Shown here piece by piece: positions 19,684 to 35,296 of a DNA stretch of 64,000 nt (position 1 is its first letter; each line of letters starts with the position of its first letter). The notes beneath the pieces were generated by a model. It did not search any database. It was not told the DNA's origin and worked only from the letters and a program-made list of their open reading frames with translations. The DNA is from Lentisphaeria bacterium (lineage in GTDB: Bacteria; Verrucomicrobiota; Lentisphaeria; Oligosphaerales; CAITYL01). Made by a program: the position numbers and the translations under genes. The DNA lies in assembly GCA_041651315.1 (NCBI GenBank), contig JBAZJM010000004.1:1223-65222 (forward strand), given 5' to 3'.

Positions 19684-20922
19684 TCATTTCATCTGCACGG
19701 CAGGCTTGAAAACCACGGCCATCAGAACCATCAATACGACTGAAATGACGAATGCGATCAAGTACGGCTGCCCCCAATGGTGACGGACGGCTTGGGTGGC
19801 GGCATCGGTGACGGTGTTGTGCCCGAGAATGAGGTCGAACACAAAATTCGAAAGCAGCGTGCCCAAACCGAACAAGATCAGTCCGATCAGTCCCTGGGCC
19901 TGGCCGCGCAATTCGGCGGGCGCCACCGCATCAACGTACATCTGGCTGCCGACAACCAGCAGGCCGAAGATCAGGCCATGCACCAAAATGCCGCCGAAAT
20001 CGCCGGCAACCAGATTCTGTGACGCTCCCCAATAGAATGCGCCATAACGGATGGCTAGTGCGCCGAGACCGATGACCATCGCCCACTTGTAGCCGACCTT
20101 CCTCAGAATGAACGGGATCGTCAGCATGAAAATCAGTTCGAACACCTGCCCGAGGTTCATCGTCACGGTCAGATAGTTAACGCCCTTCTCGGCAAGATAC
20201 TGGCCACAATACACGTTGTACCACTGAAAGGGGATCATCGCGAGCAGGATCAGGATCGCAAACACCGCCATGTCAGTCCGTTTGAAGAGCACCAATGCAC
20301 GTAGTCCCAGCGCATCGACCAACGACATCGGCCGGTCTTTGGCTTTTGGCAATGTCGGCGGCAGGAAAAAAGCCAAGATGCCGCCCGACATGGCGGCAAT
20401 GGCTCCGGCCATGAAAATGCAGGGGGTGCTGTCGAAATTCTCGATGCCGAGCCACTTCGTGCCCACGATGCTGAAGACGGCGGATGCAACCCAGCCGAGC
20501 GAACCAAACAGGCGAATTTGGGGGAAAGCCGCGGCCGGGCTGTTCGCCATCGCAATGGTGGCCGTCAGCGACCATGTCGGCATGTAAAAGAGCATCACCA
20601 GCACCAGCGTGACAAACAGGACGGCGGGATCTTTGACCGTATAGGCGCAGGCCAACAGCGCCGCGGAAACAAAGTTGCAGAACGCCAGTACGTTCTCGCC
20701 GTTCATGAAGCGATCTGCGAACATGCCGAAGAACGGGAAGGAAAACGTACCGAACGCCATGATCAGGCCACAGCGATACGGCCACGGACTGCCCGCGGGA
20801 GAGAGTTTGGTCACATAGGCGAGCATGGGGACAAACCACACTGGCAGCATCATGAACTGTAAAAACATCATCGCGCTGAGTTTGGCGCGCGTCCCTATCG
20901 GCATCGTGCTCGACATCAACAT
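19684..20922 (-). CDS. MFS transporter, nucleoside:H+ symporter-like family
   Basis: 412 aa, 12 TM-like segments, N-terminus LSAMMFLQFMMLPVWFVPMLAY resembling the Nuc_H_symport family. G+C is visibly lower than in the neighbours. Confidence 0.6.
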   Translation of the reverse strand: MLMSSTMPIGTRAKLSAMMFLQFMMLPVWFVPMLAYVTKLSPAGSPWPYRCGLIMAFGTFSFPFFGMFADRFMNGENVLAFCNFVSAALLACAYTVKDPAVLFVTLVLVMLFYMPTWSLTATIAMANSPAAAFPQIRLFGSLGWVASAVFSIVGTKWLGIENFDSTPCIFMAGAIAAMSGGILAFFLPPTLPKAKDRPMSLVDALGLRALVLFKRTDMAVFAILILLAMIPFQWYNVYCGQYLAEKGVNYLTVTMNLGQVFELIFMLTIPFILRKVGYKWAMVIGLGALAIRYGAFYWGASQNLVAGDFGGILVHGLIFGLLVVGSQMYVDAVAPAELRGQAQGLIGLILFGLGTLLSNFVFDLILGHNTVTDAATQAVRHHWGQPYLIAFVISVVLMVLMAVVFKPAVQMK

Positions 20923-20963
20923 TCCTCTTTACGGTACCGCGGAAGTTTCGCCGGCCGGCCCGT

Positions 20964-21149
20964 TCATTCGGCCGGTGCCGCGAGGGTGAACACGGTGCCC
21001 TCGGCGGCGGCGACGTAAAGGGTGTCGCCGGCCGGGTTGCCGGCGGTGGCGGCTGCCGGCAACCACCACAGCCCGCCCCGCAGCGGAATGGCAAGGGCCA
21101 AGCGGCCTGCCCTGGCGGCCTGGATGATGATCTTGGCGGACGTGTCCAT
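20964..21149 (-). CDS. Small hypothetical ORF (61 aa); coding status uncertain
   Basis: It fills the gap between two co-directional genes with 9-nt and 41-nt spacers. No motif recognised. Confidence 0.25.
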   Translation of the reverse strand: MDTSAKIIIQAARAGRLALAIPLRGGLWWLPAAATAGNPAGDTLYVAAAEGTVFTLAAPAE

Positions 21150-21158
21150 GGCGAGCCC

Positions 21159-23033
21159 CTAAACTCTATGGCGCGCCAGCTTGGCTTTGTATTCTCTGGC
21201 CTGCCAGCCATTGATGTTCCGGTTGTACCAGCCCTCCTCGGGCAGGCCGAAGGCGAGGGCTTTCTCGTGTGCCACGGACAAGGCTTCCAGGGTCCGCTCC
21301 ATGCCGCAAACGCCCTGGCGTTCCGCATGTTTGTCATCCGTGGCAAAGAAGCGTCCCAGATGGTTCATGGCGCTTTGCTGGTGGTGCATGACCAACAGTT
21401 CGGAACTCTCGAAGAGGGCGCGGCGGACTTCCGTGTCGGCCAGCACCGCCGCCCGGCCGGGCATGTCGTTTTTCCGGGCGGCCAAGTCGGCGGCGGCCTG
21501 GGCCAGGTCGCGTGAGGCCGTGGCATAGGCGCGCGCCATCTCCTTGCCGAACGGGGTGTCCGTTTCCGGCAGCCAGCGGTAATCGAGGGAGTTGCCGGTG
21601 GCGTGGTCGCAGAATCGCATCGCTTCGGCGAAAACGGCGGCCCGCCGGCACAGATATTGCTGCCACGGGGCGGGGTTCTCGGGGCAGAGTTTCGGCGCCA
21701 GCCAGCCGATGAAGTTTTCGGACGTCAGTTCCTCGTGCCACAGCGCCCGCGCGAAGAGCAGCATGTTGAATTCCGGGGCGATGGCCGGGCCCGCGACTTG
21801 CAGCGAAAAATGCGTGCCGATGCCGTGCGACTGGTAGACGCGCAGGTCGCCCAGAATGACTCCGGGCAGGAACGGATACATGCCCCGGCATAGGACTTGG
21901 TCGAAGTAGTACTCGAAGGTGTGCGCGTCGCCAATGCCATTAAACGCGGTTTGCCAGGCCTCCAATGCTTTAAGGTAGAATGCGTTGCGCGGGCAACTGG
22001 CATCGTCGAGGGCATGGGCGTAGCAGCGTTCGCGCGGGGCGAAAAGCAGGAAGCATTCCGGCGTGGGGCGGATGTTTCTGCCTGGATACATCGTATCGTG
22101 GTACGCAATCACGGGGATCCGGCGTCCGGCGGCACCCTCTTCGCGGAGCGTTTCCGCCAGGAGCCGCATCGCCAGCATGGCCTGGTCGGAGGGAGAAAAG
22201 GCGCGGCAGGAAGGACAGTTGCACCACCCGCCCGCCGGCAGGTCGTCGGCCCAGGCATGCACGGCATAAGCGCCGGCATTCTGGCGTAGCGTCTCCCGGT
22301 AGTTCCTCTTCACGATCTGGCGGGCCTTGGGGTTGGTGACGCAAAAATTCGAATCGTTTGTCCGGCGGCCGTTGAAGTCTTCCGGCTGGAACATGCGAAA
22401 GAGTTCGGGCTCCTGCTCAAACCGCGCCCTGGGAAGCAATGCCGAGAGGCCATGCTCGCCGACTTCGAGGCGCAATCCCAGTTCCTCGGCCAGGCCGCGA
22501 TCCTCGATCCGATGGGCCACCGCATTGAACCGCAGTTTGGCGTAGAACCGCAACCACTCTTCCACGGAGAAATCCCTGGCTGTTTCCAGGCTGGCGAAAA
22601 CGCCCTGGCGGGCAAAACGGGGACGCATGGTCTCCTCGCCCAAGGGCAGGGGCTGCGCCCGGGCCGGTGCCCACTCCCCCTTCTCTCCCGGCAGCAGAAA
22701 GAGGAAACCCAGCCGTTCGGCCAGTTCGTATACCCCGTTTAGCACGCCTTTGGCCGAGCGCGCCGCAACCGTCACGCCATGGGCATCGACGGACAACCGG
22801 AAACCATCCCCGCCCCTGCCGTCCGCCGGGGCGTCCGCGGCAGAAGCATGCCGGGATTTTCGGGGGGCGATCCGCACAGAAAACCGGCCAGGCGTGGCCG
22901 GTCCGGCTTGGATCTCCGTTGCCACCCCGATTCGCCCCAGCAGCCGGGAAAGTTCCGCCACGGCATACCGATAACAGCGTTCGGCGCTCTGCTGATCCGC
23001 CATCACCACAACCTGACCGGTTAATTCAAGCAT
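21159..23033 (-). CDS. DUF4838-like glycoside-hydrolase-like protein with no signal peptide
   Basis: N-terminal GH20b/GH67N-like segment (KGVLNGVYELAERLGF) and the Cys motif GGWCNCPSCRAF, shared with the 841-aa paralogue-like protein at 26015..28540. Confidence 0.5.
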   Translation of the reverse strand: MLELTGQVVVMADQQSAERCYRYAVAELSRLLGRIGVATEIQAGPATPGRFSVRIAPRKSRHASAADAPADGRGGDGFRLSVDAHGVTVAARSAKGVLNGVYELAERLGFLFLLPGEKGEWAPARAQPLPLGEETMRPRFARQGVFASLETARDFSVEEWLRFYAKLRFNAVAHRIEDRGLAEELGLRLEVGEHGLSALLPRARFEQEPELFRMFQPEDFNGRRTNDSNFCVTNPKARQIVKRNYRETLRQNAGAYAVHAWADDLPAGGWCNCPSCRAFSPSDQAMLAMRLLAETLREEGAAGRRIPVIAYHDTMYPGRNIRPTPECFLLFAPRERCYAHALDDASCPRNAFYLKALEAWQTAFNGIGDAHTFEYYFDQVLCRGMYPFLPGVILGDLRVYQSHGIGTHFSLQVAGPAIAPEFNMLLFARALWHEELTSENFIGWLAPKLCPENPAPWQQYLCRRAAVFAEAMRFCDHATGNSLDYRWLPETDTPFGKEMARAYATASRDLAQAAADLAARKNDMPGRAAVLADTEVRRALFESSELLVMHHQQSAMNHLGRFFATDDKHAERQGVCGMERTLEALSVAHEKALAFGLPEEGWYNRNINGWQAREYKAKLARHRV

Positions 23034-23042
23034 GTTACGCCT

Positions 23043-25181
23043 CTACGCTTCCGGGTAACGTATCCGGATGATTTCGTGTAAGGCCAGCTTGCCGACATCG
23101 ATGACGGAATGGTTCCCTTTCCGCCTGACACGGAGCGGGCCGGGCGCTTCGACCAGCCGCGTCGCCTGCAACGGGGCGTCACCCTTGGCCTCGATGCGGA
23201 TGTCCGTCACCGGGATGACATCGCGGGGGATGATCGGCATGTAATAGTCGCCGGCTTCGTGCCCTTGGTGGTGGGTGGTGACGGGGCAGTTGTGCAGGTG
23301 GAGGATGCAGGCGCCATCCTTCTCGTGCCGCCAGGCGACGGTCACGCAGGGCGGGGCCTGGACGCGCAACGGGAAATCGGCGGTGTCCCCAAGGACCGAC
23401 ATCAGCATCCGGCGCAACGGTGAACTGGGGGCATAATAGAACGAAGCGCCCCAATCCCCGGCCAGGTCAATGACAAACCCGCGGCCATAGTTCCGCCGTG
23501 TCACGCCCGCCAGCGTATCGCGGCCGGTTTTCCCCGTTGCCGGATACATCAAATCCAAGCCGTCGTCCTCCCGCCCGATGCCGTCACATGTCATGAGGAC
23601 GGCGGAACCTTTTCGGGGAGTCTGCCTCGCCAGCATCGTATGCATCGCGAAACCGTGGAGATCCGGGAGCGCGGGCAGATGTTTGGTGAAATACAGCGAG
23701 TTTCGCCGGAACGCATTGGCCTCTGGCGCCGCCGCCTCGTTCACCGCGCGCAGCTTGCCCAAGGGCGGATGCGCGGTGGTTTCGCCGTCCTCATCCAGGC
23801 TGCCGGCCCACGGTCCGAGCACCAAAACCCCGCCGGCGGACACATACTCCCGCAACGCCCGCGCCTGTGCCGCGGAGAGCGCCAGTGACAACGGCAGGAC
23901 AACGGCCTTGTAGCGCGCCAGCCGTCCGGCGGTCAAATGGCGGTCGAACACGATGTCCGTTCCCAGGCCGGTTTCATTGAGCAACTGGTCCCAGCCGAAA
24001 AGGCTTTCCCAATACCAGCCGAAGCCCTTGTGGTCGGCGGTTCGGCGGCCAAAGTAAAAGGTCTCGGTTTGCTGCGAGAGGTGCAGGGCCACCGGATTGG
24101 CGCTGGGCAGTTCGGCATAGCGGGCGCGCTGGCGCAGGAACTCGGCCATGGGGCGCAGAAAGGACTGGACGCTGGCGGGCACCGATCCCTTGGGAACATC
24201 CGTTTCATAGCCGAAGGATGGAATGGCACCGAAAGACAGGCAGCATGCCGCATGGTGCAGGAGCGCCTTGGGCTCGTGGATCTGCCATTGGGATCCCATG
24301 CGCCAACGCGCGACCGGCGTCCAAATGTCCGCTTTCCGGCCATAGGCGACGGCTATTTTCGCGGACATGGAGGTGTGATCCATGTGCATCATCGCCTCGC
24401 TGGCCGTGACAATGGAGCAGTCATAGGTGTCCAAGGGGCAGGCCGTATGCCATGCATGGGGGGAATAGCGGTGGTAATGGTTGATGACGATGGTCTTGTC
24501 CGGATAATGCGCATGGAGGGTGTCCACCATCTTCTTCAGATAGGCGGCATACATGGTGAAACGCCAATGCACCCAGGCGCGAAAGGTCCGGCTCCCAAAA
24601 TCCACGGACGTTGGCAAGGGGAGGCCAGTTTCGGCGGCGAATTTTTTCCGGCAATGCGTGCAAACGCACGGCGGCGACGGCCGCAAGGCGGCGCCGAAAT
24701 TGGCGCCGTCGAAGAAGAGGCCGTCGAGCCCGAAATTGGCAAAGAACTCGAGCATCATGCCGATCAGTGCGTCGCCATAGGGCGAATTGATGCAACACGC
24801 CGCCTTTGGCCCGGGATCACGCCGGTCCATGTAGACGATGCGCCAGGACCGGTGCGCCTTCCAGGCCGACTCGCAGTACGGCGAGCACCACGTGATGGCG
24901 GCCATGCCGCCCGCATGGATGAGGGCGATTTGGCGCTTCAGCTTGGCGGTGAGATCGCCGGGGACGCGCGAAGAGATGGGGATGAAGGCGGACCGGAACC
25001 GCGGGCCCCCATGGTCATAGACCCCCACCCAGCGCGATTCCACGCCGTTCCTGGCCAGGGTCTGTTCGAATCTGGCGCGGGACAGGCCGCCGACATCGGC
25101 GTCGGGCATGAGATAATTCTCGGAAACCCGGAATAGGGTCTGGTCGTATGGCAGTATGGTTTTCATCGGCCGCGGGTTCAT
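23043..25181 (-). CDS. Putative glycoside-hydrolase-like TIM-barrel protein (GH42/GHL-like, with a trimerisation-like middle domain)
   Basis: GLDGLFFDGANFG, the Cys cluster PPCVCTHCRKKF and a later VLVLGPWAG segment. The assignment is by resemblance only. Confidence 0.45.
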   Translation of the reverse strand: MNPRPMKTILPYDQTLFRVSENYLMPDADVGGLSRARFEQTLARNGVESRWVGVYDHGGPRFRSAFIPISSRVPGDLTAKLKRQIALIHAGGMAAITWCSPYCESAWKAHRSWRIVYMDRRDPGPKAACCINSPYGDALIGMMLEFFANFGLDGLFFDGANFGAALRPSPPCVCTHCRKKFAAETGLPLPTSVDFGSRTFRAWVHWRFTMYAAYLKKMVDTLHAHYPDKTIVINHYHRYSPHAWHTACPLDTYDCSIVTASEAMMHMDHTSMSAKIAVAYGRKADIWTPVARWRMGSQWQIHEPKALLHHAACCLSFGAIPSFGYETDVPKGSVPASVQSFLRPMAEFLRQRARYAELPSANPVALHLSQQTETFYFGRRTADHKGFGWYWESLFGWDQLLNETGLGTDIVFDRHLTAGRLARYKAVVLPLSLALSAAQARALREYVSAGGVLVLGPWAGSLDEDGETTAHPPLGKLRAVNEAAAPEANAFRRNSLYFTKHLPALPDLHGFAMHTMLARQTPRKGSAVLMTCDGIGREDDGLDLMYPATGKTGRDTLAGVTRRNYGRGFVIDLAGDWGASFYYAPSSPLRRMLMSVLGDTADFPLRVQAPPCVTVAWRHEKDGACILHLHNCPVTTHHQGHEAGDYYMPIIPRDVIPVTDIRIEAKGDAPLQATRLVEAPGPLRVRRKGNHSVIDVGKLALHEIIRIRYPEA

Positions 25182-25185
25182 GCTT

Positions 25186-25917
25186 TCACCGCTGCTTGCG
25201 GTTGCGGCGGGCGGGCCACAGCAGAGAGCCGCCTAGCCCCAGCAGGCAGAGCAAGCCAGGCTCGGGTACCACCGCCGTGTACACAGCGGACACGTCATCC
25301 AGGGCTATCTGCCGGGTAATGCCATGCGGATCTTGAAATTCCACGTATAGGTCGTGACCGGCGGCCGCCGTACCGGCGGTGTAGGAGCAGGTGCGCAGAT
25401 CCCAGCCATTGACCGTTGCGTTGCCGAAGGTGGCGGTGGTAAGCAAGGTGCCGGAGCCGACCGCGTCCGCCCAAAGCCGGATATTCAGAATCTGGTCCCC
25501 GGCAGGGCTGGGATACATGGTGACCATGTCCGGCCGCAATCCCTGATAGACCGTGACGGTGATTTGATCCCCGGCATTGACATGCAGGTTGGAGCCGCCG
25601 ACCTTCAAAATCTGGCTTAGGCTTGCAGGAATGACGCTAACCGGATCGAGAAATCCCCAATAGGTGCCCGTATGCGGGGCCAGGCCGCCAGTCGTTGGCG
25701 CGCGCCCCCCGCCCCCGGAAGTCGCCGTCCAGCCGGAAACGACATAGGTTGAAGGGCCGGCCTCAAAGCCTGGGTTGATGATGTCGATTATGGCGGCAGA
25801 CATGGTTCCAGCGGTGATGAGCATTCCCACTAGCACGGCCAATGCCATGGCAAAAACGGACGGGTATCCTGCTTTCGCGGTCTGGATCGGACGGGGGGAA
25901 CAGATTGCTTCTTTCAT
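25186..25917 (-). CDS. PEP-CTERM-anchored secreted protein with a CBM-like domain
   Basis: The C-terminus VPEPGLLCLLGLGGSLLWPARRNRKQR is a canonical PEP-CTERM motif. There is an N-terminal TM/signal, and IINPGFE opens a CBM4/9-like domain. The start is taken at ATG 25917. Confidence 0.8.
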   Translation of the reverse strand: MKEAICSPRPIQTAKAGYPSVFAMALAVLVGMLITAGTMSAAIIDIINPGFEAGPSTYVVSGWTATSGGGGRAPTTGGLAPHTGTYWGFLDPVSVIPASLSQILKVGGSNLHVNAGDQITVTVYQGLRPDMVTMYPSPAGDQILNIRLWADAVGSGTLLTTATFGNATVNGWDLRTCSYTAGTAAAGHDLYVEFQDPHGITRQIALDDVSAVYTAVVPEPGLLCLLGLGGSLLWPARRNRKQR

Positions 25918-26014
25918 GACGGCTTCTCCTGTGGGCGTTGACGCCGGGTGGTTATTCCGCGCGGCTGGCGACGTCTCCAGCCGCGATTTTCGCCGTGACA
26001 TATGGGCACGGGGG

Positions 26015-28540
26015 TCACGGTGCGAGCATGACCTGCGCGAGCCGGTCAACGTCACCGAGTTTGCTGTAGGCAACCCAGGTGTCGACCCCGAAGGCGCCAC
26101 CCGTCAGTTGCGGCGAGGTGACCCGTGCCAAATTCAAGTAGAACGGGTTGCCCGCCGCCACTCCCGCCGGGGTCAGACTGGCGAACGGCAATACCGCCCG
26201 GGTGACCCAACGGTCAGGCGCGGAGGCATCCGAAATCACCCGGATGCCGTGATCCATGATCGGCACGTTCATCCGGAAATTGACCTCGCCATTCGTGGTG
26301 GCGGCAAGCAGGCCGTGCGGGTTGATGGCGAACTGCCGATACGGCAACGCCCGGTCCTTGGCCACGAAAATTTCCCAATCATCGTACGGGAAGACGGTGG
26401 CTGACGTCTGCAATTTCATTGTGGGACAAGGATCGGTCAATTCGAGATATAGGAACTGCCCGTCATGCAGTGCCCGGGCGGAAAGCGCGCGCACCGCAGG
26501 GGCATTTTGGCTCGCGGCATGCCAGGATCCCAGAACGGCCGCCTTGGACCAGTCGATCTTGGCGGAGTCACCGTGGGCCGCCGCCACCCGCGGCACGGTG
26601 ATGGACGGGATGGATGCCGCCGATCGCTCGACATACTGCTGGCGCCCGGCCACCATGTAACTCCAAACGCTCAATTCGAAAAGCTCCACCCGTTTCTTTT
26701 GGAGGTCGGTCGCGGCAAGCGCCTTGGCCTGCCGCATATGCTCGCCCAGTTGCGCCATCCGCTCGGGGGTGCCGAGTTTGCCCCAGGCAATGGGCATGGT
26801 TTGGTGGCGGTCGGCCGGGTCATAATTGCGCGGGTCACAGTAGGTTTCTTCAACCAACCGATAGAAAGCGCGCATCGGCGGCCCGGCCGGGCCGTACAGC
26901 CGGCTGAAATAGTCATCCATCAGCGTGTTGACGTCGAGTGACACGTCATCCATCAGCTTGTAACTCAGATAAGCCTCCAAGTCCTGGCCGTAGCCGCAAT
27001 AGAAGAAACCGCGCACCCCGAGTTGATGGAACAGCTTCATCTGCTGGTCGAGGGTATGCGCAAAGAAGCCGGGCCAGCAATGGAACTTGACGGCGTCGGC
27101 GACTTCCTTGGGAAACGTGTCGTACAGCCACAGGTAGAGCGGGCGTTGCTGTTTGGCCCACTGTTTAAGCAGGCCGATTTCGTGTGCATATTCTTCCTGA
27201 TAGGGGCCACGATTCCAGGCAAAGCAGAAATGCACCGCGACATTCTTCGCCAGCGGAAAGCTTGGTGGTGCCGCATGGCTCCCGTAGGCCAGGGTGACGA
27301 GTTCGTCCTGGGGGTTGGTCTGAATAACGTCCTGGGCGACCGCGTTGACGAAACGGAAAAAGTAATCGCTATACTGGCCGTTCGAGAAGTACGAGCACTC
27401 AGGGCGGGCCTTGGCCAGCAGCGCTTGGCAGCGGGCGCATTTGCAGAACGATCCGTTGTCCATCGGTTCGATCGGAAACGGATTGGGCGGCCGCGGTTGC
27501 CAGAAGATGCCCAATTGCCCGCCGGTTTTCTTGCCGTCCAGGTATGCGCGGGCGTCCTCGGTCAGTTGCCGGATCAGCCCATCGCTGGCATAACACATCT
27601 GCGGCGGCCTTCCCTGGTATCCTTGCGCGAACCAGTCCGGCTTCTTTTCGACGAACAGGCTGGGAGCCGCTGGATTTTTCTCCCAAAACCGGTCGTAATA
27701 GCCGTACAGCGAGTGATTGCAGCGGGCGATGACGCCCCCCTCACGGTGGCGGAGCTGGAACAAGCGTACCGCCACCCGTTTGGCGAGGCAATAACCTTGG
27801 GGGTTGGACATCCTGGCATGCATTTGGGGGTAGGCCGCCGCCTCCCAGGCGTTGAACCCGGCCGACCCGGCCGGCCAAAGCTGCGACAGTTCATCATACC
27901 GATCTCCCACGCTGCCCAGCCCGCCCAGCGCGTCACGGTAGCGGAACGTTGGCTGGCGGCGAATCATGCGGCTGGCCACCGTCAAGGTCGCGGCATGTGG
28001 GCAGTCGGTGCCGAATTCAGTCGCGTTAAACCAACGCACCTGGCAGAAGGTTTCGAGAAATTCATAACAAGCGTCCAATGAGCCGCGTTCATCCCAAATG
28101 TCGGGCCACGAGTGAAACATGCGGACAGGGTCGGCCGTGGTCGGATTATAGATGACCGGCCCGGTGTCCGGCTTGTCCCGCCCGATCAGCACCAGCGTGT
28201 CAGGGAAAAACCGGATCATGTATTCCTGGCTCTTAAAACTGTCCGCCCGGATGCCCAGTGCCCGGGTTTGGGCGCTGTCGCCAATGAGGATTCGGGGGCC
28301 GGTGGGCGTGACGGTGTCATTGACGATTTGCAGGGTGGCTCCGGTGATGTCCCGGACATGCGCCTGCAACTCGAACGCCCCCAATTGCGCCGCGCGTGTC
28401 GCCTGCTGGGCGATGACGATGGTGGCGGCCGGCTGGCGGTCTTTGACCAGTGTAAAAGACGGAATAGCCTCCGCGCTGGAACGCGCGGCCATGAGCACAA
28501 GCGGCAAAAAGGCACCGTGGAACATTTTTTTGAAAATCAT
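26015..28540 (-). CDS. Secreted DUF4838-like protein with a C-terminal CBM9/DOMON-like domain
   Basis: Signal peptide MIFKKMFHGAFLPLVLMAARSSAEA, the Cys motif GSFCKCARCQALL, and a C-terminal segment DGQFLYLELTD...FVAKD...FAINP. Confidence 0.6.
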   Translation of the reverse strand: MIFKKMFHGAFLPLVLMAARSSAEAIPSFTLVKDRQPAATIVIAQQATRAAQLGAFELQAHVRDITGATLQIVNDTVTPTGPRILIGDSAQTRALGIRADSFKSQEYMIRFFPDTLVLIGRDKPDTGPVIYNPTTADPVRMFHSWPDIWDERGSLDACYEFLETFCQVRWFNATEFGTDCPHAATLTVASRMIRRQPTFRYRDALGGLGSVGDRYDELSQLWPAGSAGFNAWEAAAYPQMHARMSNPQGYCLAKRVAVRLFQLRHREGGVIARCNHSLYGYYDRFWEKNPAAPSLFVEKKPDWFAQGYQGRPPQMCYASDGLIRQLTEDARAYLDGKKTGGQLGIFWQPRPPNPFPIEPMDNGSFCKCARCQALLAKARPECSYFSNGQYSDYFFRFVNAVAQDVIQTNPQDELVTLAYGSHAAPPSFPLAKNVAVHFCFAWNRGPYQEEYAHEIGLLKQWAKQQRPLYLWLYDTFPKEVADAVKFHCWPGFFAHTLDQQMKLFHQLGVRGFFYCGYGQDLEAYLSYKLMDDVSLDVNTLMDDYFSRLYGPAGPPMRAFYRLVEETYCDPRNYDPADRHQTMPIAWGKLGTPERMAQLGEHMRQAKALAATDLQKKRVELFELSVWSYMVAGRQQYVERSAASIPSITVPRVAAAHGDSAKIDWSKAAVLGSWHAASQNAPAVRALSARALHDGQFLYLELTDPCPTMKLQTSATVFPYDDWEIFVAKDRALPYRQFAINPHGLLAATTNGEVNFRMNVPIMDHGIRVISDASAPDRWVTRAVLPFASLTPAGVAAGNPFYLNLARVTSPQLTGGAFGVDTWVAYSKLGDVDRLAQVMLAP

Positions 28541-28606: not shown

Positions 28607-30415
28607 CTAATTCGGCTGCATCGCCGTGTCGTGCGGGCCGCCATCCGGGAGCGGATAGGCGGTGCCGCTCGGATAACCGAAATAAAACCGGGCGCGGGGG
28701 ATCCATTTCGCATGGCCGTCGCAATACACGGCATTGATGCCGTCCAGGAGCCCCCCAGGCTGCAAATGGGCCGAGTTATGGTTGGACATGCCTTCGCCTT
28801 CCCGAAACAACATGTCGGCGAACAGCGGCATGCCTGCGGTGACGTTGGCCGTCAATTGATAGTGCTGATTGGCGGGCACAAACGGCGGTGACCACCAATA
28901 ACCGGGATGCATCGCCACGGTATAGATGTAGCCGGCCTCGTAGTAGGGCTCGGCCATGGCCTGATCCTTGGTCAATATCCCGTAGACGTCATACCTGGCG
29001 CTCGGACAAAACAAGAACCGGTGCAAATTTTGCGTGTCGACGTAATGACTCAGGAACGAGGGGAACCCTTCATTCTGCCAGATGTACCCCCATTTCATGA
29101 TGGCCAAGTCGCCCGGGGTGTTGATCCACGGCCCGGGGAATTGATCCGCGTAATCACTTGCGTACAACTGCGCCAGCACGCCCAGACTCCGCAGGTTGCC
29201 CACACAGACGATGCGCTTGCCCCGTTCCCGCGCGTTGCCCAGCGTCGGCAATAACAACCCCGCCAGCAAGGCAATGATAGCGATAACCACCAGCAATTCG
29301 ACGAGCGTGAACCGCGTCGCCTTGGCTCGGGTTTTTCGGGGGGCAATGGTGGTGCCGTCTACATATGTGGGGGGAAAGACGACGTTGTGAGGCGTCTCCC
29401 CTTTCATCATGTCCAGGCACAGGGTGGCGGCGGCGCGGCCCATTTCTCGCAGCGGATAGGTGAAGGTGGCCAGCCGGTCGGAACCGACCCACATTTCCCG
29501 GATGCTGTCGCAACCGATGACCGACAGATCTTCGGGAACTCTGATCCGGTGTTTCGCGCAGGCCTCCAGCAGGCCCCAGGCCTGGTAATCGTTATAAGGC
29601 ACGATGGCCGTCGGCGCATCGGGATGGTGCAGGATGACGTCGGCGTCGGCCAGGACGGCGTCATGGAACTGACGGTCGCCCTCCTTGAGTGGAGCGTGGG
29701 CGTAGACTCGCGGCTCCAGGCCGGCTTCGCGCATGGCCCGCTCATACCCCTCGCAACGTTGTTTGGCGTCGATGTGGAACCCTTTGATACGGTCATCGTC
29801 ATAACCCGTGAAGGTCAGATGGAGAATACGGCGGTGGCCGATCTCCAGTAGGCGGCGGGTGGCCAAATAACCGATCGCTTCGTGGTCCCGGACTACCGCC
29901 GGTATACCGGGAACGAGGGAGTTGAACAGTTGCACTACCGGCAGGCCGTCGGCGCGCAACGCCTGCAAGCGGGCGAAGTTGTTGGCGCCGTCCCGATCCA
30001 GGGCGGGCATGACGATCAGGCCGTCCACCCGACGGTCCTGGCTGAACTTCAGGTGCCGCCGCTCGTCCGCCGCCGAATTGCCGTGGGCATAGGTGATGAC
30101 GGAATAGTCGTGATCCAGGCAGATGTCCTGAATGCCGCGCAGCAGCGGCATGGAGAAGTCTTCGAAGGTCTCCCGCATCAGCAGCCCCAGCAGGAAGGAG
30201 CAGTTGTTGGTGAAGCTGCGGGCGAGGATGTCCGGCTTGTAATGGAGCCTGGCGGCCACGGCCAGGATTTTCTGCCGTGCCTCCTCGCTGACGCCGATGG
30301 TGGTGGCGGCGGCATCGCTCTTGCGGAACGCCGCCCATACCGCCGAGGAAGACACGCCCGCCTGCCGCGCCACTTCGCGCATGCTGGACGACCTCGGCTT
30401 GGCGGGAGTGGTCAT
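28607..30415 (-). CDS. In-frame fusion of a LacI-family regulator (HTH plus periplasmic-binding-fold ligand domain) to a prepilin-type N-terminal methylation motif and a DUF1559-like pseudopilin domain
   Basis: HTH MREVARQAGVSSSAVWAAFRK...ARLHYKPDILARSF, a LacI-type sugar-binding fold to about residue 395, the basic linker PRKTRAKATR, then [22 protein letters not shown] and the C-terminal NAVYCDGHAKWIP. The frame is continuous, with no in-frame ATG, GTG or TTG in the linker. The start is taken at ATG 30415. Confidence 0.75.
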   Translation of the reverse strand: MTTPAKPRSSSMREVARQAGVSSSAVWAAFRKSDAAATTIGVSEEARQKILAVAARLHYKPDILARSFTNNCSFLLGLLMRETFEDFSMPLLRGIQDICLDHDYSVITYAHGNSAADERRHLKFSQDRRVDGLIVMPALDRDGANNFARLQALRADGLPVVQLFNSLVPGIPAVVRDHEAIGYLATRRLLEIGHRRILHLTFTGYDDDRIKGFHIDAKQRCEGYERAMREAGLEPRVYAHAPLKEGDRQFHDAVLADADVILHHPDAPTAIVPYNDYQAWGLLEACAKHRIRVPEDLSVIGCDSIREMWVGSDRLATFTYPLREMGRAAATLCLDMMKGETPHNVVFPPTYVDGTTIAPRKTRAKATRFTLVELLVVIAIIALLAGLLLPTLGNARERGKRIVCVGNLRSLGVLAQLYASDYADQFPGPWINTPGDLAIMKWGYIWQNEGFPSFLSHYVDTQNLHRFLFCPSARYDVYGILTKDQAMAEPYYEAGYIYTVAMHPGYWWSPPFVPANQHYQLTANVTAGMPLFADMLFREGEGMSNHNSAHLQPGGLLDGINAVYCDGHAKWIPRARFYFGYPSGTAYPLPDGGPHDTAMQPN

Positions 30416-30436
30416 TTTTTTCTGATTTATTTTCGA

Positions 30437-30452
30437 TATAAACATGTTTATA
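30437..30452 (-). promoter_or_regulatory. Perfect 16-bp palindrome TATAAACATGTTTATA, a candidate LacI-type operator
   Basis: It lies 22 nt upstream of the fusion-gene start codon, in a locally AT-rich stretch, just downstream of a -10-like hexamer. Confidence 0.55.
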
Positions 30453-30457
30453 ATGAC

Positions 30458-30485
30458 AATATACACATGTCTATGTTTTATGCAA
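30458..30485 (-). promoter_or_regulatory. Sigma70-like promoter TTGCAT-N16-TATATT for the LacI-pseudopilin fusion gene
   Basis: On the minus strand, TTGCAT is at 30485-30480, followed by a 16-nt spacer and TATATT at 30463-30458. Confidence 0.5.
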
Positions 30486-30581
30486 ATGCCGCCAGCCGGG
30501 TGGGGGTGACAAGAATGTTGGTTGGGACCACCCTTTTGAGGAAAAGCGGTTCCCACCCCCTCCATCAAACCTTTTTGTGCC

Positions 30582-30950
30582 TTAACGCGGAGGGGCGCTT
30601 TCGCCACAAACGTTCTTCTGCTTCCTCATGATCGCGACCAAGACGTAGACGCAAATGGCAATCCAAAGCTGTGCCTGAACGGCGTTCATCGAATTTCCGT
30701 AGAACGCCTTGATGCGCAGATTTTACTTGATCCACCGGAAGAACAACTCCACCTGCCAGCGGTACTTGTAGAGCCGGGCGATGCTGAGCGCATCGGCGTC
30801 GCGAAGGTTCGTGAGGAACACCAGATCCAGTTCGGACACCGGATCGAAGAACTGCACTTTGCGGATCGATTCGGGATACGATTTCCTCGGGTAAAATCCG
30901 CGCAACCGTCCAATCTGGTCGGATCGCCCCCTCTCATCGGGATTGGGATG
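30582..30950 (-). pseudogene. IS4-family (DDE_Tnp_1) transposase remnant covering the C-terminal third only, with an in-frame TAA
   Basis: RSDQIGRLRGFYPRKSYPESIRKVQFFDPVSELDLVFLTNLRDADALSIARLYKYRWQVELFFRWIK-stop-NLRIKAFYGNSMNAVQAQLWIAICVYVLVAI matches the conserved IS4 C-terminus. TAA at 30723-30725 replaces the usual Gln (WIKQ). The N-terminal two-thirds of the protein is absent. Confidence 0.75.
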
Positions 30951-31083
30951 GGGCGTTTGGCGGCCCGGCGACTTGCAACTGGGTTTAACTGGGTTAAACT
31001 ATGCGAAAGATGGCTTTGATGGGTTATGAAAGGTCGCCCAAAACTTCCCGATCATGACAATCACCACGAAAACATCCCGCGTG
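30941..31083 (+). repeat. Copy A of an approximately 140-bp duplicated promoter/operator/5'-CDS module
   Basis: It aligns with 39766-39908. Shared sequence: gccggcgacttgcaactgggtttaactgggttaaactatgc, and later catg(a/g)caatcacca(c/a)gaaaa(c/g)atcccgcgt. Confidence 0.85.
30973..31000 (+). promoter_or_regulatory. Sigma70-like promoter TTGCAA-N16-TAAACT overlapping the inverted repeat GTTTAAC-tgg-GTTAAAC (30983-30999)
   Basis: Read directly. It lies 54 nt upstream of ATG 31054. Confidence 0.5.
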
Positions 31084-32280
31084 TTGTGCATCAAGGGGGT
31101 TCACCCGCAGCACGAACAGGTCCGGAAAACTCTCAAGGAACACCTTGCCACCCTTGAGATCGGTGACCGTTTGGCTTCGGACCGCCAGTTGTCGGCGATG
31201 TTCAACGTGGATCGGACAACGATCCGGCGGGCCATGTCGGACTTGGCGCAAGAGGGGTATGTGCAGCGCCGGCAGGGATGTGGCACCGTCGTTGCGATGA
31301 CCGTCCACTTGGGTGCCCCGTCCGTGTCATCCAAGCTGATCGGGATGACGGTTCCCGACGTCGAAATCCCCTCCTTTGCCTGCTTGCTCAAGGGCGTGGA
31401 CGAGGAAGCGCAGGCGCACGGGTACAGCGTCCTGGTCCGCAATAGCAACCAGGACACCCGGCGCGAGCGGAACATCTTGGAGGAACTCCGCCATCAAAAG
31501 CTGGCAGGCATCATCGTCAACCCATTCCATGAGGATGCGTTTGACCGCGACTATCACCGCCTGTTGAATGAGATCCATCAGGGCGGCACGCGGATCGTCA
31601 TGGTGGACCAATATCTTCCCGGTTTGGAAGAACTGCCCACCGTTTACACCGACAAGGTACAGATTGGCTACCGGGCCACCGAGCATCTGATCATGCTCGG
31701 GCACCGGCGGATCTGCTACCTGACTACCGGCCATTACGACACCACGGGACAAGGCTGCCTTAAGGGGCATCGGCTGGCCCTGAATGAGTACGGCATCGAC
31801 TATGATCCGGCGCTGACGGCGGAAATCCCCAACCCGAATTGCGCGGAGCCCGCTCATGACTTCGTGCTGCGGCTGCTGCGGGCCAATCCCAATGCCTTCA
31901 CGGCCGTTGCCACCCAGCAGTTCTCCATGACTTATGGCATCCTCAATGCCCTGCAGGAGTTGTCGTTGCGCGTTCCAGAGGAGATAGCTGTGGTGGGCGG
32001 TGACGCCTTTGAGAACCCGCGGTTGTCTCATGTCACCCACACTCTGCAACCATTTCAGGAGATGGGGCGCGCCGCGGTCCGACTGGTACTGGGACGCAAC
32101 GGTACCGGCGGCGAAGCCGCCAAGCGGCACGTCCTGCTGCAACCCAGGCTCGTCATTGGCGACACCTGCGGCATGCGGCCGGCCCGGCGTCCTGCAACAT
32201 CGGATGATAGCGCATTGCCCGTGGCTGGCCGGCCCGCGGAAACCGCGGCCGAAAATCGCCCCCCCGGAAAAAAACGATGA
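31054..32280 (+). CDS. Hybrid regulator with a GntR-type winged HTH and a LacI-type (periplasmic-binding-fold) ligand domain
   Basis: RLASDRQLSAMFNVDRTTIRRAMSDLAQEGYVQRRQGCGTVV (GntR HTH), then LIGMTVPDVEIPSFACLLKGVDEEAQAHGYSVLV...KLAGIIV (PBP1 fold). Confidence 0.8.
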   Translation: MTITTKTSRVLCIKGVHPQHEQVRKTLKEHLATLEIGDRLASDRQLSAMFNVDRTTIRRAMSDLAQEGYVQRRQGCGTVVAMTVHLGAPSVSSKLIGMTVPDVEIPSFACLLKGVDEEAQAHGYSVLVRNSNQDTRRERNILEELRHQKLAGIIVNPFHEDAFDRDYHRLLNEIHQGGTRIVMVDQYLPGLEELPTVYTDKVQIGYRATEHLIMLGHRRICYLTTGHYDTTGQGCLKGHRLALNEYGIDYDPALTAEIPNPNCAEPAHDFVLRLLRANPNAFTAVATQQFSMTYGILNALQELSLRVPEEIAVVGGDAFENPRLSHVTHTLQPFQEMGRAAVRLVLGRNGTGGEAAKRHVLLQPRLVIGDTCGMRPARRPATSDDSALPVAGRPAETAAENRPPGKKR

Positions 32281-32301: not shown

Positions 32302-32955
32302 ATGCGCCACAAGACAACGCGAGGCTTCACGTTAATCGAACTGTTGGTGGTCATCGCCATCATTGCCATCCTGGCGTCCATGGTATTGCCGGCGTTGCAA
32401 GGGGCCAAGGACAAGGCCAAGGCCATCAAGTGCGTCAGCAACCTCCGGCAGGTGGGCGTGGCCTTCTCCCTGTATAGCGGTGATTATAATGACTGGATAC
32501 TGGTCAATGACCAATACGGGAGCGGCATCTGGGTGCGCGCTTTGTTCAATCATGGCTACATCGCCCAACGGGACATCCTGGTCTGCCCCGGATTCACGCC
32601 TTGTACGTTTGCCCGGCCGATTGATGAATACAGTTACTGGAACACCTATGGGATAAAATTGGCCATTTATTACTCGGGGGCTCCGGCCGGGGATGGCTAT
32701 CAGCACGTATTCTTGCGGGCATCCAGGCTCAATGACGCCTTCTTGGGCGACACCGTGGGCACCAATCGCCACCAGCAGATTGCCTATTTTGTGACAACGT
32801 ACTTTCCTGAAGGCGGTGTCCATGCCAGGCATTCAGAACGGGCGAACATGTTGTTTCCTGACGGACATGTGGCGTCATTGTCCGGCGCGGAATTGCTGAG
32901 CGATGCAAAAACCGGTTATGTGAATGCGCAGGGCATGGACATCCCTTTGCCCTAG
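32302..32955 (+). CDS. Pseudopilin-like protein with a prepilin N-terminal cleavage/methylation motif and the H-X9-DG motif (DUF1559-like)
   Basis: MRHKTTRG|[24 protein letters not shown] has Gly(-1) and Glu(+5). The C-terminal [14 protein letters not shown] is H-X9-DG. Confidence 0.8.
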
Positions 32956-32979: not shown

Positions 32980-35220
32980 ATGAAACGAACGAGTGCGTTG
33001 TTTGGGCTGGCCATGAGCTTGGTGATGCCGCTTTGGGCCGGCGATGATGCGGTTGCCGGAAAAGCGCCAGGAGGGACCATGCGCTTCACTGCCTCTCCCT
33101 GCGATTGGGTGTATGCGCCGGGGGAGCCGGTCCTCGTCACGCTGGCCAGGGACGATGTCTCACGGCCGGCCGAACTGCGGGTGTCGGCCGTCGATTTTTG
33201 GGGGCAGGCCGCCTGCTCGCGAAAAGAGGTCTGGGAAAAGGGCGCGGCCGTGAAAAAGGTCAGCCTGGACTTCGACCGCCTTGGTTATTTCGTGGTCACG
33301 GCGTCTCTGGCCGTCACCGGTGGAAAACCGGATCCGTTTGTGGTGTCACAACCACTGGTTGTCATTCCACCCGCCCCGCCGATACCCAACGACCGGAATC
33401 CGTTCGGCGCCAATTTCCATCTTACCTGGTTCTCCGACGCTGCCGCGGAAAAGGAGCTCCGCCTGGCCCGACGCATCGGTTTTGGCTGGGGACGAGGGCT
33501 GCTTTTTGACTGGGTGCAGTTCGCGGCTCCCCCCAACCTGAACGATCCCAAGTTCTGCGCCCAATGGGATAGATTCATTGCCCTGATTGAAAAATCCGGC
33601 ATCGCTTGCCTGGGAGCCGTTTATTATGTTCCTAAGTGGGCTTCCGGCGCACCGGACAGCAGTGAATTCGGGGTCTGGTCCAGAACCATGCCAGACGACC
33701 TGACGCCCTTGACAAATTACTGCGAAGCCATGGCCAAGCGGTTCCCGTCCGTCCGCTATTGGGAAGTGGGCAACGAATCTGACGCCGTGCTTTTTTGGCA
33801 TGGGCGGAAGAACAGTTATGCGTCCGCTGATGACCAAAAGATCATCGAAGATTACGTTGATTTCCTTGCGGCGGCCGCCAAGGGATTCCGCCGGGGAAAC
33901 CCGGCGGCCCGCATTTTGTTCTCGGGCATTACTGACGCACGGGAGGATGGCGCCGACTATCGGCCCTTTGTCAAGCATGCGTTCAGCCGCGGAGCGGGAC
34001 GCTATGCCGATGTCATGAACGTCCATTATGTGAAGGACATTCCCGCTGTACGCCGGCTGCTGAAGGCGACGGGCGACGATTCAAAGCCCGTATGGGTTAC
34101 GGAGATTGGCGGCTGGACCACCGGCGAGGATGGCGACCCCCGCCCCCAGATCATCCGCGATATCACCCAGTCGGTCATCCAACTGTCGTCCGGTGCGGAA
34201 CGGGTTTTTAAGTTCGGCATCCGCAATGACGTCATTGATCCCGCGGGCTTTGACTACAAGTTCGGGCTGGTGCGGAACGATTTCGTCCCACAACCAGCCT
34301 ACGTCGCCTATGCCACCCTGATCCGGCTCATGGCGGACGCGACGTTCAAGAAGGAGTTGAACGTCACCGCGCAAGCCTCGCCCGGCTGGCTTCGGGGTTA
34401 TGAATACTCCTCCCCCCAAGCCGCGTTCTTAAATTGCCTCTGGCTGAATGAGGCGTCCAAGGCGGCGGTCGTTTTGCAGACAGCCGCTCCAACACTCACC
34501 CTGATCGACGTCATGGGAAACGCTCGCGAACTCAAGGCCCATGACGGGATCGTCCGTTTTGAGGCGGACGCCTTGCCGTTCTTCATCGTCGGACCGATTT
34601 CCGACCGTCAAGGGGAGATCAAGTATCCAGCGGATGAGTTTGTCCGAACCATTCCCATCCCGTTGGCCAATCCCGGTTTTGAAGCGGAACCGGCGGGCGG
34701 TTTTCCATTCCCTGGATGGATCTCCACCTTTGCCCCCAATTGCACGCTCAGCAGGAACCTGGCGCCGCCCTCCGTCCATGGCGGAAAGGCCTCTGCCGCC
34801 ATACACGTGCCGGCGCCAGTCAAAATTGCGGGGAAGACAACGCCATGGCCCCCCTGGCCGGACATTCACCAGCGCCTGGACTGGGCCTCACTCCGTCCGC
34901 AATTAACTGCCAATGAATATTTAAAAGTTCGCCTCGAAGCCTGGGTGAAATGTACAGGGGTCACCGGTCCCGGGGTTTGTGTTGGCTGTTTCTTAACCGA
35001 CAAGAACGGGGCACGAGTCCGAAGATGGGTGGAGACGGCACCACGTCCCTGGGGAAATGCGTCCGGCTGGGAGCGTCTTGAATTGGCCGGGACCATCCCC
35101 GTTCCAGACGAAAACGGGAAGCTGAGTGTCGAGCTGCATATGGCTCCCGGCACGTGCGGGACGGTTGAGTGGGATGACTTGTCCCTGTCGATTGAGGTAT
35201 GGCGAAAGCAGATTAAATGA
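32980..35220 (+). CDS. Secreted clan GH-A glycoside hydrolase (family unassigned) with a C-terminal beta-sandwich/CBM-like region
   Basis: Signal peptide MKRTSALFGLAMSLVMPLWA, the acid/base-like YWEVGNESD and the nucleophile-like VWVTEIGGW. Confidence 0.6.
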   Translation: MKRTSALFGLAMSLVMPLWAGDDAVAGKAPGGTMRFTASPCDWVYAPGEPVLVTLARDDVSRPAELRVSAVDFWGQAACSRKEVWEKGAAVKKVSLDFDRLGYFVVTASLAVTGGKPDPFVVSQPLVVIPPAPPIPNDRNPFGANFHLTWFSDAAAEKELRLARRIGFGWGRGLLFDWVQFAAPPNLNDPKFCAQWDRFIALIEKSGIACLGAVYYVPKWASGAPDSSEFGVWSRTMPDDLTPLTNYCEAMAKRFPSVRYWEVGNESDAVLFWHGRKNSYASADDQKIIEDYVDFLAAAAKGFRRGNPAARILFSGITDAREDGADYRPFVKHAFSRGAGRYADVMNVHYVKDIPAVRRLLKATGDDSKPVWVTEIGGWTTGEDGDPRPQIIRDITQSVIQLSSGAERVFKFGIRNDVIDPAGFDYKFGLVRNDFVPQPAYVAYATLIRLMADATFKKELNVTAQASPGWLRGYEYSSPQAAFLNCLWLNEASKAAVVLQTAAPTLTLIDVMGNARELKAHDGIVRFEADALPFFIVGPISDRQGEIKYPADEFVRTIPIPLANPGFEAEPAGGFPFPGWISTFAPNCTLSRNLAPPSVHGGKASAAIHVPAPVKIAGKTTPWPPWPDIHQRLDWASLRPQLTANEYLKVRLEAWVKCTGVTGPGVCVGCFLTDKNGARVRRWVETAPRPWGNASGWERLELAGTIPVPDENGKLSVELHMAPGTCGTVEWDDLSLSIEVWRKQIK

Positions 35221-35296
35221 CCGGCTTCGTGATGGTGTGGGTTAAACGGGCTAACCGTGTTGATGGGGAAAACCAAGAGGTCAAGGAGTTGTTGTC

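Follow-up and report, generated by a model that had tools for sequence, protein, structure and literature searches.

A LacI-type repressor fused in frame to a pseudopilin domain in a probable Lentisphaeria glycan-utilisation locus, and its possible tethering to the membrane

Our study reports on a gene of a Lentisphaeria bacterium in which a LacI-type repressor is joined, in one reading frame, to a type IV pilin-like (pseudopilin) domain. The DNA analysed, hereafter the window, is a stretch of 64,000 nt from contig JBAZJM010000004.1 of assembly GCA_041651315.1 (positions 1,223 to 65,222, forward strand). On its minus strand, 28607..30607 form a single uninterrupted open frame, in which a conserved ATG at 30415 gives a protein of 602 aa; the whole fusion open reading frame (ORF) thus spans 28607..30415 (minus strand, 602 codons plus stop). 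This start (MTTPAKP...) agrees with the N-termini of the orthologues, and an alternative start at Met12, chosen by some gene callers, yields a form of 591 aa (P0001). An original prediction, made by reading the DNA, had described one continuous frame from LacI to pseudopilin, and the 602-codon ORF, with the domains assigned to it by Pfam and NCBIfam, bears this out.

The first part of the protein, residues 11-358, is a complete LacI/PurR-type repressor. It comprises a LacI-type helix-turn-helix (HTH) at residues 11-62 (30230..30385, minus strand; Pfam PF00356, 27.4 bits against a cutoff of 27) and a sugar-binding core of the periplasmic-binding-protein type I at residues 76-356 (29348..30190, minus strand; PF13377, Peripla_BP_3, E 1.7e-27; PF00532, Peripla_BP_1, E 7.5e-21). 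Comparison with solved structures aligns residues 3-331 of the 340 of PurR with residues 12-358 of the fusion, and the sugar-binding core is modelled by AlphaFold2 (AF2) with a predicted local distance difference test score (pLDDT) mostly above 90. With an N-terminal LacI-type HTH and a type I periplasmic-binding-like effector and dimerisation core, the fusion protein classifies as a member of the LacI/GalR family; where fused proteins carry a name in the source databases, it is 'LacI family transcriptional regulator'.

The pilin-like part begins at F369 with an alpha1-N hydrophobic segment (FTLVELLVV..., residues 369-390; 29246..29311, minus strand), which is the predicted sole transmembrane anchor and the only Kyte-Doolittle peak in the whole protein (maximum 3.05). 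Its roughly 20 hydrophobic residues, with Phe at +1 (Phe or Met being the type IV pilin-like residue there) and Glu at +5, have the form typical of type IV pilin-like proteins. Pfam N_methyl gives a weak match at residues 369-389, and when the C-terminal part is scanned alone NCBIfam TIGR02532 (GFxxxE pilin) lies above its cutoff (18.3 against 16.3). The NCBIfam GspG, GspH and PilA N-terminal matches begin at 366-369, that of GspG spanning 369-418, and a PDB sequence search aligns residue 1 of mature PilA and of mature GspG with F369. The globular part that follows (residues 391-602; 28610..29245, minus strand) is divergent and HX9DG/DUF1559-like. It retains an NLRxLG region and a C-terminal ..DGH.. 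motif; the C-terminal motif ...NAVYCDGHAKWIP lies at about 28697-28741 on the minus strand. The DUF1559-like domain that had been announced here holds as a weak similarity below the family thresholds: Pfam DUF1559/SBP_bac_10 (PF07596) scores 15.8 bits against a threshold of 23.3 over profile positions 2-49 only, TIGR04294 (HX9DG) scores 17.6 bits against a cutoff of 19 over model positions 8-22 only, and in the H-x9-DG motif DGH is present with Leu at the His position, and only the DG half matches. The 234 codons of the pilin half are free of stops and frameshifts, with native-like codon periodicity and a third-position GC content (GC3) of 0.78. In the full-length AF2 model the LacI core is confident and the linker is of low confidence, and residues 371-421 form a long helix.

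Between the two parts lies a basic linker, residues 357-368 (..APRKTRAKATR; 29312..29347, minus strand), which forms a basic tether of about ten residues to the pilin helix; the 15 residues before F369 include five Lys or Arg and no Asp or Glu. Its codons are those read by hand in the original prediction (CCC CGA AAA ACC CGA GCC AAG GCG ACG CGG TTC ACG). Two features of a prepilin are missing at this point. The residue at -1, where a prepilin has Gly and rarely Ala, is Arg368 (codon CGG), as had been noted, and in place of a short basic N-terminal leader 368 residues stand ahead of Phe+1. Separate translation of the pilin part was considered and is ruled out: no in-frame ATG, GTG or TTG occurs between Met336 and Phe369, and since the closest such codons upstream of F369 are Met335/336, within the LacI core, the pilin part cannot be made alone.

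Alignment of the window DNA with the locus of the unfused orthologue P0002 (L001) places the join. Homology runs through GCC AAG GCG ACG CGG, the last codon being that of R368, and ends at TTC ACG (Phe-Thr); the basic linker thus belongs to the LacI protein itself, as the beginning of its variable tail, and Phe+1 marks the breakpoint. This breakpoint, R368|F369 (29306..29314, minus strand), is where homology to the unfused orthologues stops. The blastn match to L001 ends at 29306, and a short TCACG similarity leaves the exact position uncertain by about 6 nt. There is no change of frame at the join, which is not a frameshift between neighbouring genes. The breakpoint coincides with the 5' edge of the repeated pilin motif, of which the 64-kb window holds only two copies, and does not fall within the motif, so that a repeat-mediated misjoin would require a motif already joined to LacI. 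The identical ORF, in its 591-aa form, is found on a 61,117-nt contig of an ENA assembly with MEGAHIT-style k141 names (L005), and again on an 11,637-nt contig of the Logan assembly of run SRR8542065 (L006); their DNA matches that of the window at 100% identity, over 7.8 kb for the first and 5.0 kb for the second.

The relatives of the repressor half are unfused. Five LacI orthologues at 74-84% identity are LacI-only proteins of 372-418 aa, and in an exhaustive HMMER search the unfused P0002 is the representative of the window protein's 50% cluster. On the P0002 contigs the LacI gene is followed by genes for Laminin_G_3/PEP-CTERM, SASA, GDSL lipase and DUF4838 proteins. A scan of genome contigs recovered a single unfused orthologue, in a Lentisphaerae metagenome-assembled genome (MAG; L003, CAITYL010000053.1), where LacI is succeeded by a PEP-CTERM protein, a 1016-aa protein and a pseudopilin; the nearest pilin gene there lies 4 kb downstream of LacI and is not orthologous to the fused domain. 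Scans of metagenome contigs with the window protein and with P0127, a second fusion described below, as queries gave no matches. A frameshifted pilin remnant behind the relatives' LacI gene was sought and rejected, there being none in the three frames of the L001 tail (alignment A1). Because the closest orthologues are LacI-only, with no pilin gene next to them, and because DNA homology stops at R368|F369, the fusion is to be regarded as a derived, lineage-specific and young event, and not as a conserved family. For the LacI moiety, comparison with the two unfused orthologues for which DNA is available gives ratios of nonsynonymous to synonymous substitution rates (dN/dS) of 0.13 and 0.19, and the two compared with each other give 0.22; by this measure, the LacI moiety is under purifying selection. 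About 300 bp upstream of the fusion gene lies the C-terminal fragment of an IS4-type DDE transposase (60 aa; PF01609, E 7e-8; 30723-30905, minus strand) within a wider remnant at about 30620-30940, between both regulator-pilin loci of the window, so the region has been rearranged; the Logan contig ends beside this remnant.

The promoter region of the fusion gene is conserved. About 60 nt upstream of the gene are kept in L001 and L003, and the flanks diverge. This block (30437..30486, minus strand) contains a -35/-10-like site, TTTGCA-17-TATATT, together with a perfect palindrome TATAAACATGTTTATA (30437-30452) and a related palindrome ATACACATGTCTAT (30461-30474), both candidate operators. The two palindromes are the only matches in the window, against 0.07 expected, and both overlap the -35/-10-like site. 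With these predicted operators, the arrangement would be the classic layout of an autoregulated repressor that heads its own operon. LacI-family operators are usually CG-centred; the palindromes here have a CATG centre.

Downstream of the fusion gene, after a gap of 66 nt in which no terminator-like site occurs, follow co-oriented genes (19684..28540, minus strand) that probably constitute the regulated operon. In order, these encode a DUF4838 protein (26015-28540), a 304-aa protein, a GH42M-domain protein (23043-25181), a second DUF4838 protein (21159-23033) and a Nuc_H_symport-type transporter of the major facilitator superfamily (MFS; 19684-20922), all on the minus strand. On the plus strand lies an unfused pair: a regulator with a GntR-type HTH and a sugar-binding core (31054..32280) and, 21 nt after it, a pseudopilin with the leader MRHKTTRG|FTLIELL (32302..32955). 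This neighbouring pair had been taken to carry the same two functions as the fusion in separate adjacent genes; the separate genes, their spacing and the leader are as described, and the HTH of the regulator is of GntR type, not LacI type. Both this pilin and the one downstream of LacI in L003 were rejected as orthologues of the fused domain, since only their N-terminal 54-88 residues are alike. The two cassettes of the window (19684-28540 and 32980-38066) have the look of polysaccharide-utilisation loci without SusC/D, with an MFS transporter on each side, and contain poorly characterised putative glycan-active proteins (two DUF4838, the GH42M-domain protein, a 746-aa protein without a Pfam match and a GH28).

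The architecture is not confined to the window. A search for proteins of this domain combination, which had been proposed as a check, leaves the fusion standing and also shows that it is not without homologues: at least four further fusions of an HTH and sugar-binding regulator with a pseudopilin occur in metagenomes. Three of these (P0127, P0145 and P0220) come from the best 150 matches of an exhaustive search and one (P0011) from a word-index search; their domain combinations were assigned by hmmscan (Pfam) for the first three and taken from precomputed database domains for P0011. P0127 (610 aa, KKHKGG|FTLIELL, LacI HTH) is present on five contigs from five samples; P0145 (616 aa from a TTG start, TRTRGG|FTLVELL, LacI HTH) in NCBI assembly GCA_028277745.1 and two Logan runs; P0220 (562 aa, RPARG|FTLVELL, GntR HTH) on one ENA contig; and the group P0011/P0066/P0075 (741-744 aa, P0011 having 741; RTSAG|FTLVELL, LacI HTH) on nine contigs. 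A profile built from the five fusions found no new ones, a result limited by the word index used, with which P0127, P0145 and P0220 were missed as well. Another unusual LacI-family architecture was met in P0163 (662 aa), in which a LacI-type HTH is followed by two tandem sugar-binding cores.

All four of the other fusions retain Gly at -1. P0011 keeps an in-frame ATG from which the pilin could start and P0127 keeps a GTG, whereas P0145 and P0220 offer no possible internal start for the pilin part. In P0127 (L007:682-2514) the GTG in the linker yields a textbook prepilin leader, MKRKKHKGG|F, and this pilin may be translated separately. The P0127 protein is identical in its five samples, and the downstream PEP-CTERM gene varies in length (408 vs 416 aa). 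At 90% identity, P0127, P0145 and P0220 each form a singleton cluster. The 90%-identity cluster of P0011 contains, across samples, fused proteins as well as unfused ones, LacI of 369 aa and pilin of 356 aa, and in this lineage the fused allele equals the unfused one minus 65 nt that include the LacI stop codon (L004:2900-3130 compared with L017:1100-1380). P0145, like the window protein, is without the HX9DG His and is otherwise apparently intact.

The locus of P0145 (L012, JANQFR010000014.1 of GCA_028277745.1, 3280-12709) mirrors the window. There, a GntR-type regulator gene and a pseudopilin gene share 4 nt, with a GH16 gene behind them; the LacI-pilin fusion runs divergently from this unit and precedes a gene for a 276-aa protein and another GH16 gene. 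Thus the P0011 lineage, L012 and the window all have a regulator next to a pseudopilin. Judged from these gene orders, a regulator, a pseudopilin and glycosidase or PEP-CTERM genes appear to make up a recurrent, tightly packed cassette in glycan loci of the Planctomycetes-Verrucomicrobia-Chlamydiae (PVC) bacteria. With a spacing of 21 nt, or an overlap of 4 nt, between regulator and pseudopilin genes, a small deletion can readily fuse the two, and the sequences indicate that such fusions have arisen repeatedly and independently in PVC bacteria. Those with Gly at -1 may be split by prepilin peptidase into two normal proteins and might then cost little.

From this analysis, we favour, with some reserve, the view that the window gene is a recent deletion fusion whose product is a membrane-tethered, still functional repressor. 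On this view, an autoregulated LacI-family repressor gene at the head of a glycan-utilisation operon would have lost its stop codon in the deletion, and its 3' tail would have become continuous with the Phe+1 codon of a DUF1559/HX9DG-type pseudopilin, whose start codon, leader and Gly-1 were removed as well. The product would be a bitopic inner-membrane protein with the repressor in the cytoplasm and the pilin globular domain outside, in which the pilin alpha1 helix serves as an N-in/C-out signal anchor behind the basic tether. The predicted topology, with a single hydrophobic segment (369-390) and an N-terminal flank of charge +5, fits a LacI part inside and a C-terminal domain outside, and the ToxR/CadC-like arrangement proposed earlier is compatible with it. 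Prepilins insert N-in/C-out, and so the LacI part should be cytoplasmic and the globular part periplasmic. The prepilin peptidases PilD/GspO need Gly, at most Ala, at -1; with Arg in this position cleavage, N-methylation and assembly into a pilus or pseudopilus should be blocked, and the repressor should be permanently tethered. Release of a transcription factor by prepilin peptidase, the alternative offered in the original prediction, thus does not apply to the window protein; it could apply to the Gly-1 fusions.

Structures of LacI and PurR have the C-terminus on the side away from the DNA-binding headpiece, and the tetramerisation helix of LacI sits at this end. On these grounds of geometry, a dimer held by about ten residues at its C-termini would have its HTHs facing the cytoplasm and should still be able to reach the two palindromes that overlap the promoter. 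We consider that the tethered protein is probably still a sugar-responsive repressor of its own operon. DNA binding by a membrane-integrated regulator has a precedent in CadC (PMC6320335, PMC7888679).

Several observations weigh against this proposal. The three assemblies that contain the fusion are 100% identical, so far as assembled contigs can be compared, and one sample or read set possibly stands behind them all. With close outgroups, 25-26 unique substitutions fall on the window LacI branch and 10-13 on that of P0002 (chi-square 3.8-7.1); with distant outgroups this excess is absent, which leaves the relative-rate test ambiguous, and the LacI part may have undergone a mild relaxation after the fusion. 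The fold of the outer domain has no confident model, the AF2 pLDDT being below 50 over 423-602 in the full-length prediction and 40.6 on average for the domain alone. Furthermore, the parent gene of the pilin domain was not found. A protein query with the globular part (391-602) in the word-index search was uninformative, missing even the window's own protein, which the full-length query recovered; this empty result does not amount to an absence of homologues. Because the parent gene was not found, the deletion is a step that we infer and do not reconstruct.

Among the other explanations, that of an accidental fusion, neutral or slightly harmful and now decaying, survives best, although we hold it to be unlikely. 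Either the pseudopilin would have been inactivated or the repressor disabled by tethering or misfolding, and the operon would consequently be expressed constitutively. The event is unique to the window population, an Arg at -1 should rule out ordinary pilin maturation, the C-terminal domain has an incomplete HX9DG motif and DUF1559 scores under the threshold, the transposase remnant points to local rearrangement, and the rate on the window LacI branch may have increased. Set against this are the intact, native-like pilin codons, the low dN/dS of the LacI part, and a predicted operator and promoter that are intact; the missing HX9DG His loses weight in view of P0145, which is fused, lacks it too and otherwise looks intact.

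The recurrence of these fusions raises the question of whether the two components belong together. Regulators with an HTH and a sugar-binding core and DUF1559/HX9DG pseudopilins could be functional partners in the glycan cassettes of PVC bacteria, the fused forms being working proteins: either Gly-1 polyproteins that release a transcription factor at the membrane (P0145, P0220) or a permanently tethered sugar sensor (the window protein). We regard such a partnership as doubtful. Improbable, in our estimation, is the more specific notion of a ToxR/CadC-like sensor with two inputs, in which the DUF1559-like domain in the periplasm would detect an extracellular glycan or a signal in the envelope and relay it through the pilin helix to the LacI dimer, and which in a wider form would make the regulators and DUF1559 pseudopilins a signalling pair in PVC glycan loci. 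The predicted topology is compatible with such a sensor; regulators of both HTH types, LacI and GntR, adjoin a pseudopilin or are fused to one in at least seven loci from different lineages; translational coupling is suggested by the 4-nt overlap in L012; P0145 and P0220, with no internal start available, are true fusions; and P0127 is identical in all five of its samples. On the other side, the three singleton fusions lack relatives at 90% identity, the orthologues of the window protein are unfused and not even beside a pilin gene, and the P0011 lineage holds fused and unfused alleles together. The other fusions, with Gly-1 kept, are probably cleaved apart, so covalent coupling is apparently not needed; the only cytoplasmic part of a pilin is a short leader that is normally removed, which leaves no obvious interface in the unfused pairs; and the position of the pseudopilin behind the regulator may mean no more than that it is the first structural gene.

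It had been argued, in the manner of a Rosetta stone, that the fusion reveals a regulator and a pseudopilin acting together. Given the singleton fusions, the lineage with both alleles and the orthologues without an adjacent pilin, this argument proves weak, since the pattern agrees equally well with the accidental fusion of packed neighbours and with a physical partnership. A functional link is still worth testing, given that the fusions recur across LacI- and GntR-type regulators.

That the gene is an artefact, a chimeric assembly or sequencing error joining two separate genes, is suggested by the metagenome-type source contig, by the repetition of pilin N-terminal coding sequence in PVC genomes and by identical supporting contigs that may share reads, and yet is highly improbable, as three contigs of different lengths from different assemblers agree, the join sits at the 5' edge of a motif found only twice in 64 kb, the frame is unchanged and analogous fusions appear independently in many samples.

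The interest of the tethered repressor that we propose lies less in the window protein itself than in the repeated coupling of regulators to DUF1559 proteins. The DUF1559 family is greatly expanded and found in membrane fractions of Planctomycetes, and its DUF1559/HX9DG pseudopilins, at dozens to about 100 copies per genome, are among the largest expansions in Planctomycetes and other PVC bacteria (PMC8567305). The repeated fusions to LacI- and GntR-type regulators and the recurrent order of regulator, pseudopilin and glycosidase tie DUF1559 proteins to individual glycan-utilisation operons. If the two are partners, they would offer a first way into the function of this very large family. If the Arg-1 fusion acts as a membrane-tethered LacI protein, it would be the first transmembrane regulator of the LacI family, with a pilin signal anchor reused as a tether. 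If it does not, the gene would be a case of compact operons yielding short-lived chimeric genes, and a warning against a Rosetta-stone reading of every fusion. In the literature searched, we found no published description of a LacI- or GntR-pilin fusion or of a transmembrane LacI-family regulator, in agreement with the earlier statement that no described regulator of this architecture is known.

A comparison with known systems places the fusion protein between several of them. ToxR, CadC and TcpP carry their DNA-binding domain N-terminally in the cytoplasm and, beyond a single transmembrane helix, a C-terminal domain in the periplasm, an order that is also predicted for the fusion; such regulators bind DNA from their place in the membrane (PMC6320335, PMC7888679). 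Those proteins are activators with an OmpR-type winged helix; in the fusion, a LacI HTH is combined with a full sugar-binding core, predicted to be cytoplasmic, and a type IV pilin-like protein supplies both the anchor and the outer domain. As its DNA-binding domain is LacI-type and not the OmpR/PhoB-type winged helix of ToxR-like regulators, the resemblance is architectural only, and the fusion is an analogue, not a homologue. With LacI/GalR repressors such as PurR, RbsR and CcpA it shares a full-length match to PurR, palindromes that overlap its own promoter and a place at the head of a sugar-utilisation operon; the known members are soluble, whereas the fusion has a predicted C-terminal transmembrane segment and an extracytoplasmic domain.

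The second half of the fusion resembles the PVC DUF1559 pseudopilins (N_methyl plus SBP_bac_10, HX9DG) in its alpha1-N segment with Glu+5, its NLRxLG region and its C-terminal ..DGH.., and differs from them in having no short leader, Arg for Gly-1, a whole repressor before Phe+1 and a globular part below the family thresholds. The other fusions share with it the order of HTH, sugar-binding core, basic linker, pilin helix and DUF1559-like domain, as well as an operon context of PEP-CTERM proteins and glycoside hydrolases; they differ in keeping Gly-1, are 28-31% identical to the window protein and represent independent events. A parallel is offered by Mlc-PtsG, in which, as could be the case here, the membrane location of a sugar-operon repressor sets its activity. 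The sequestration of Mlc is reversible and non-covalent, whereas the tether predicted for the fusion protein is covalent and permanent.

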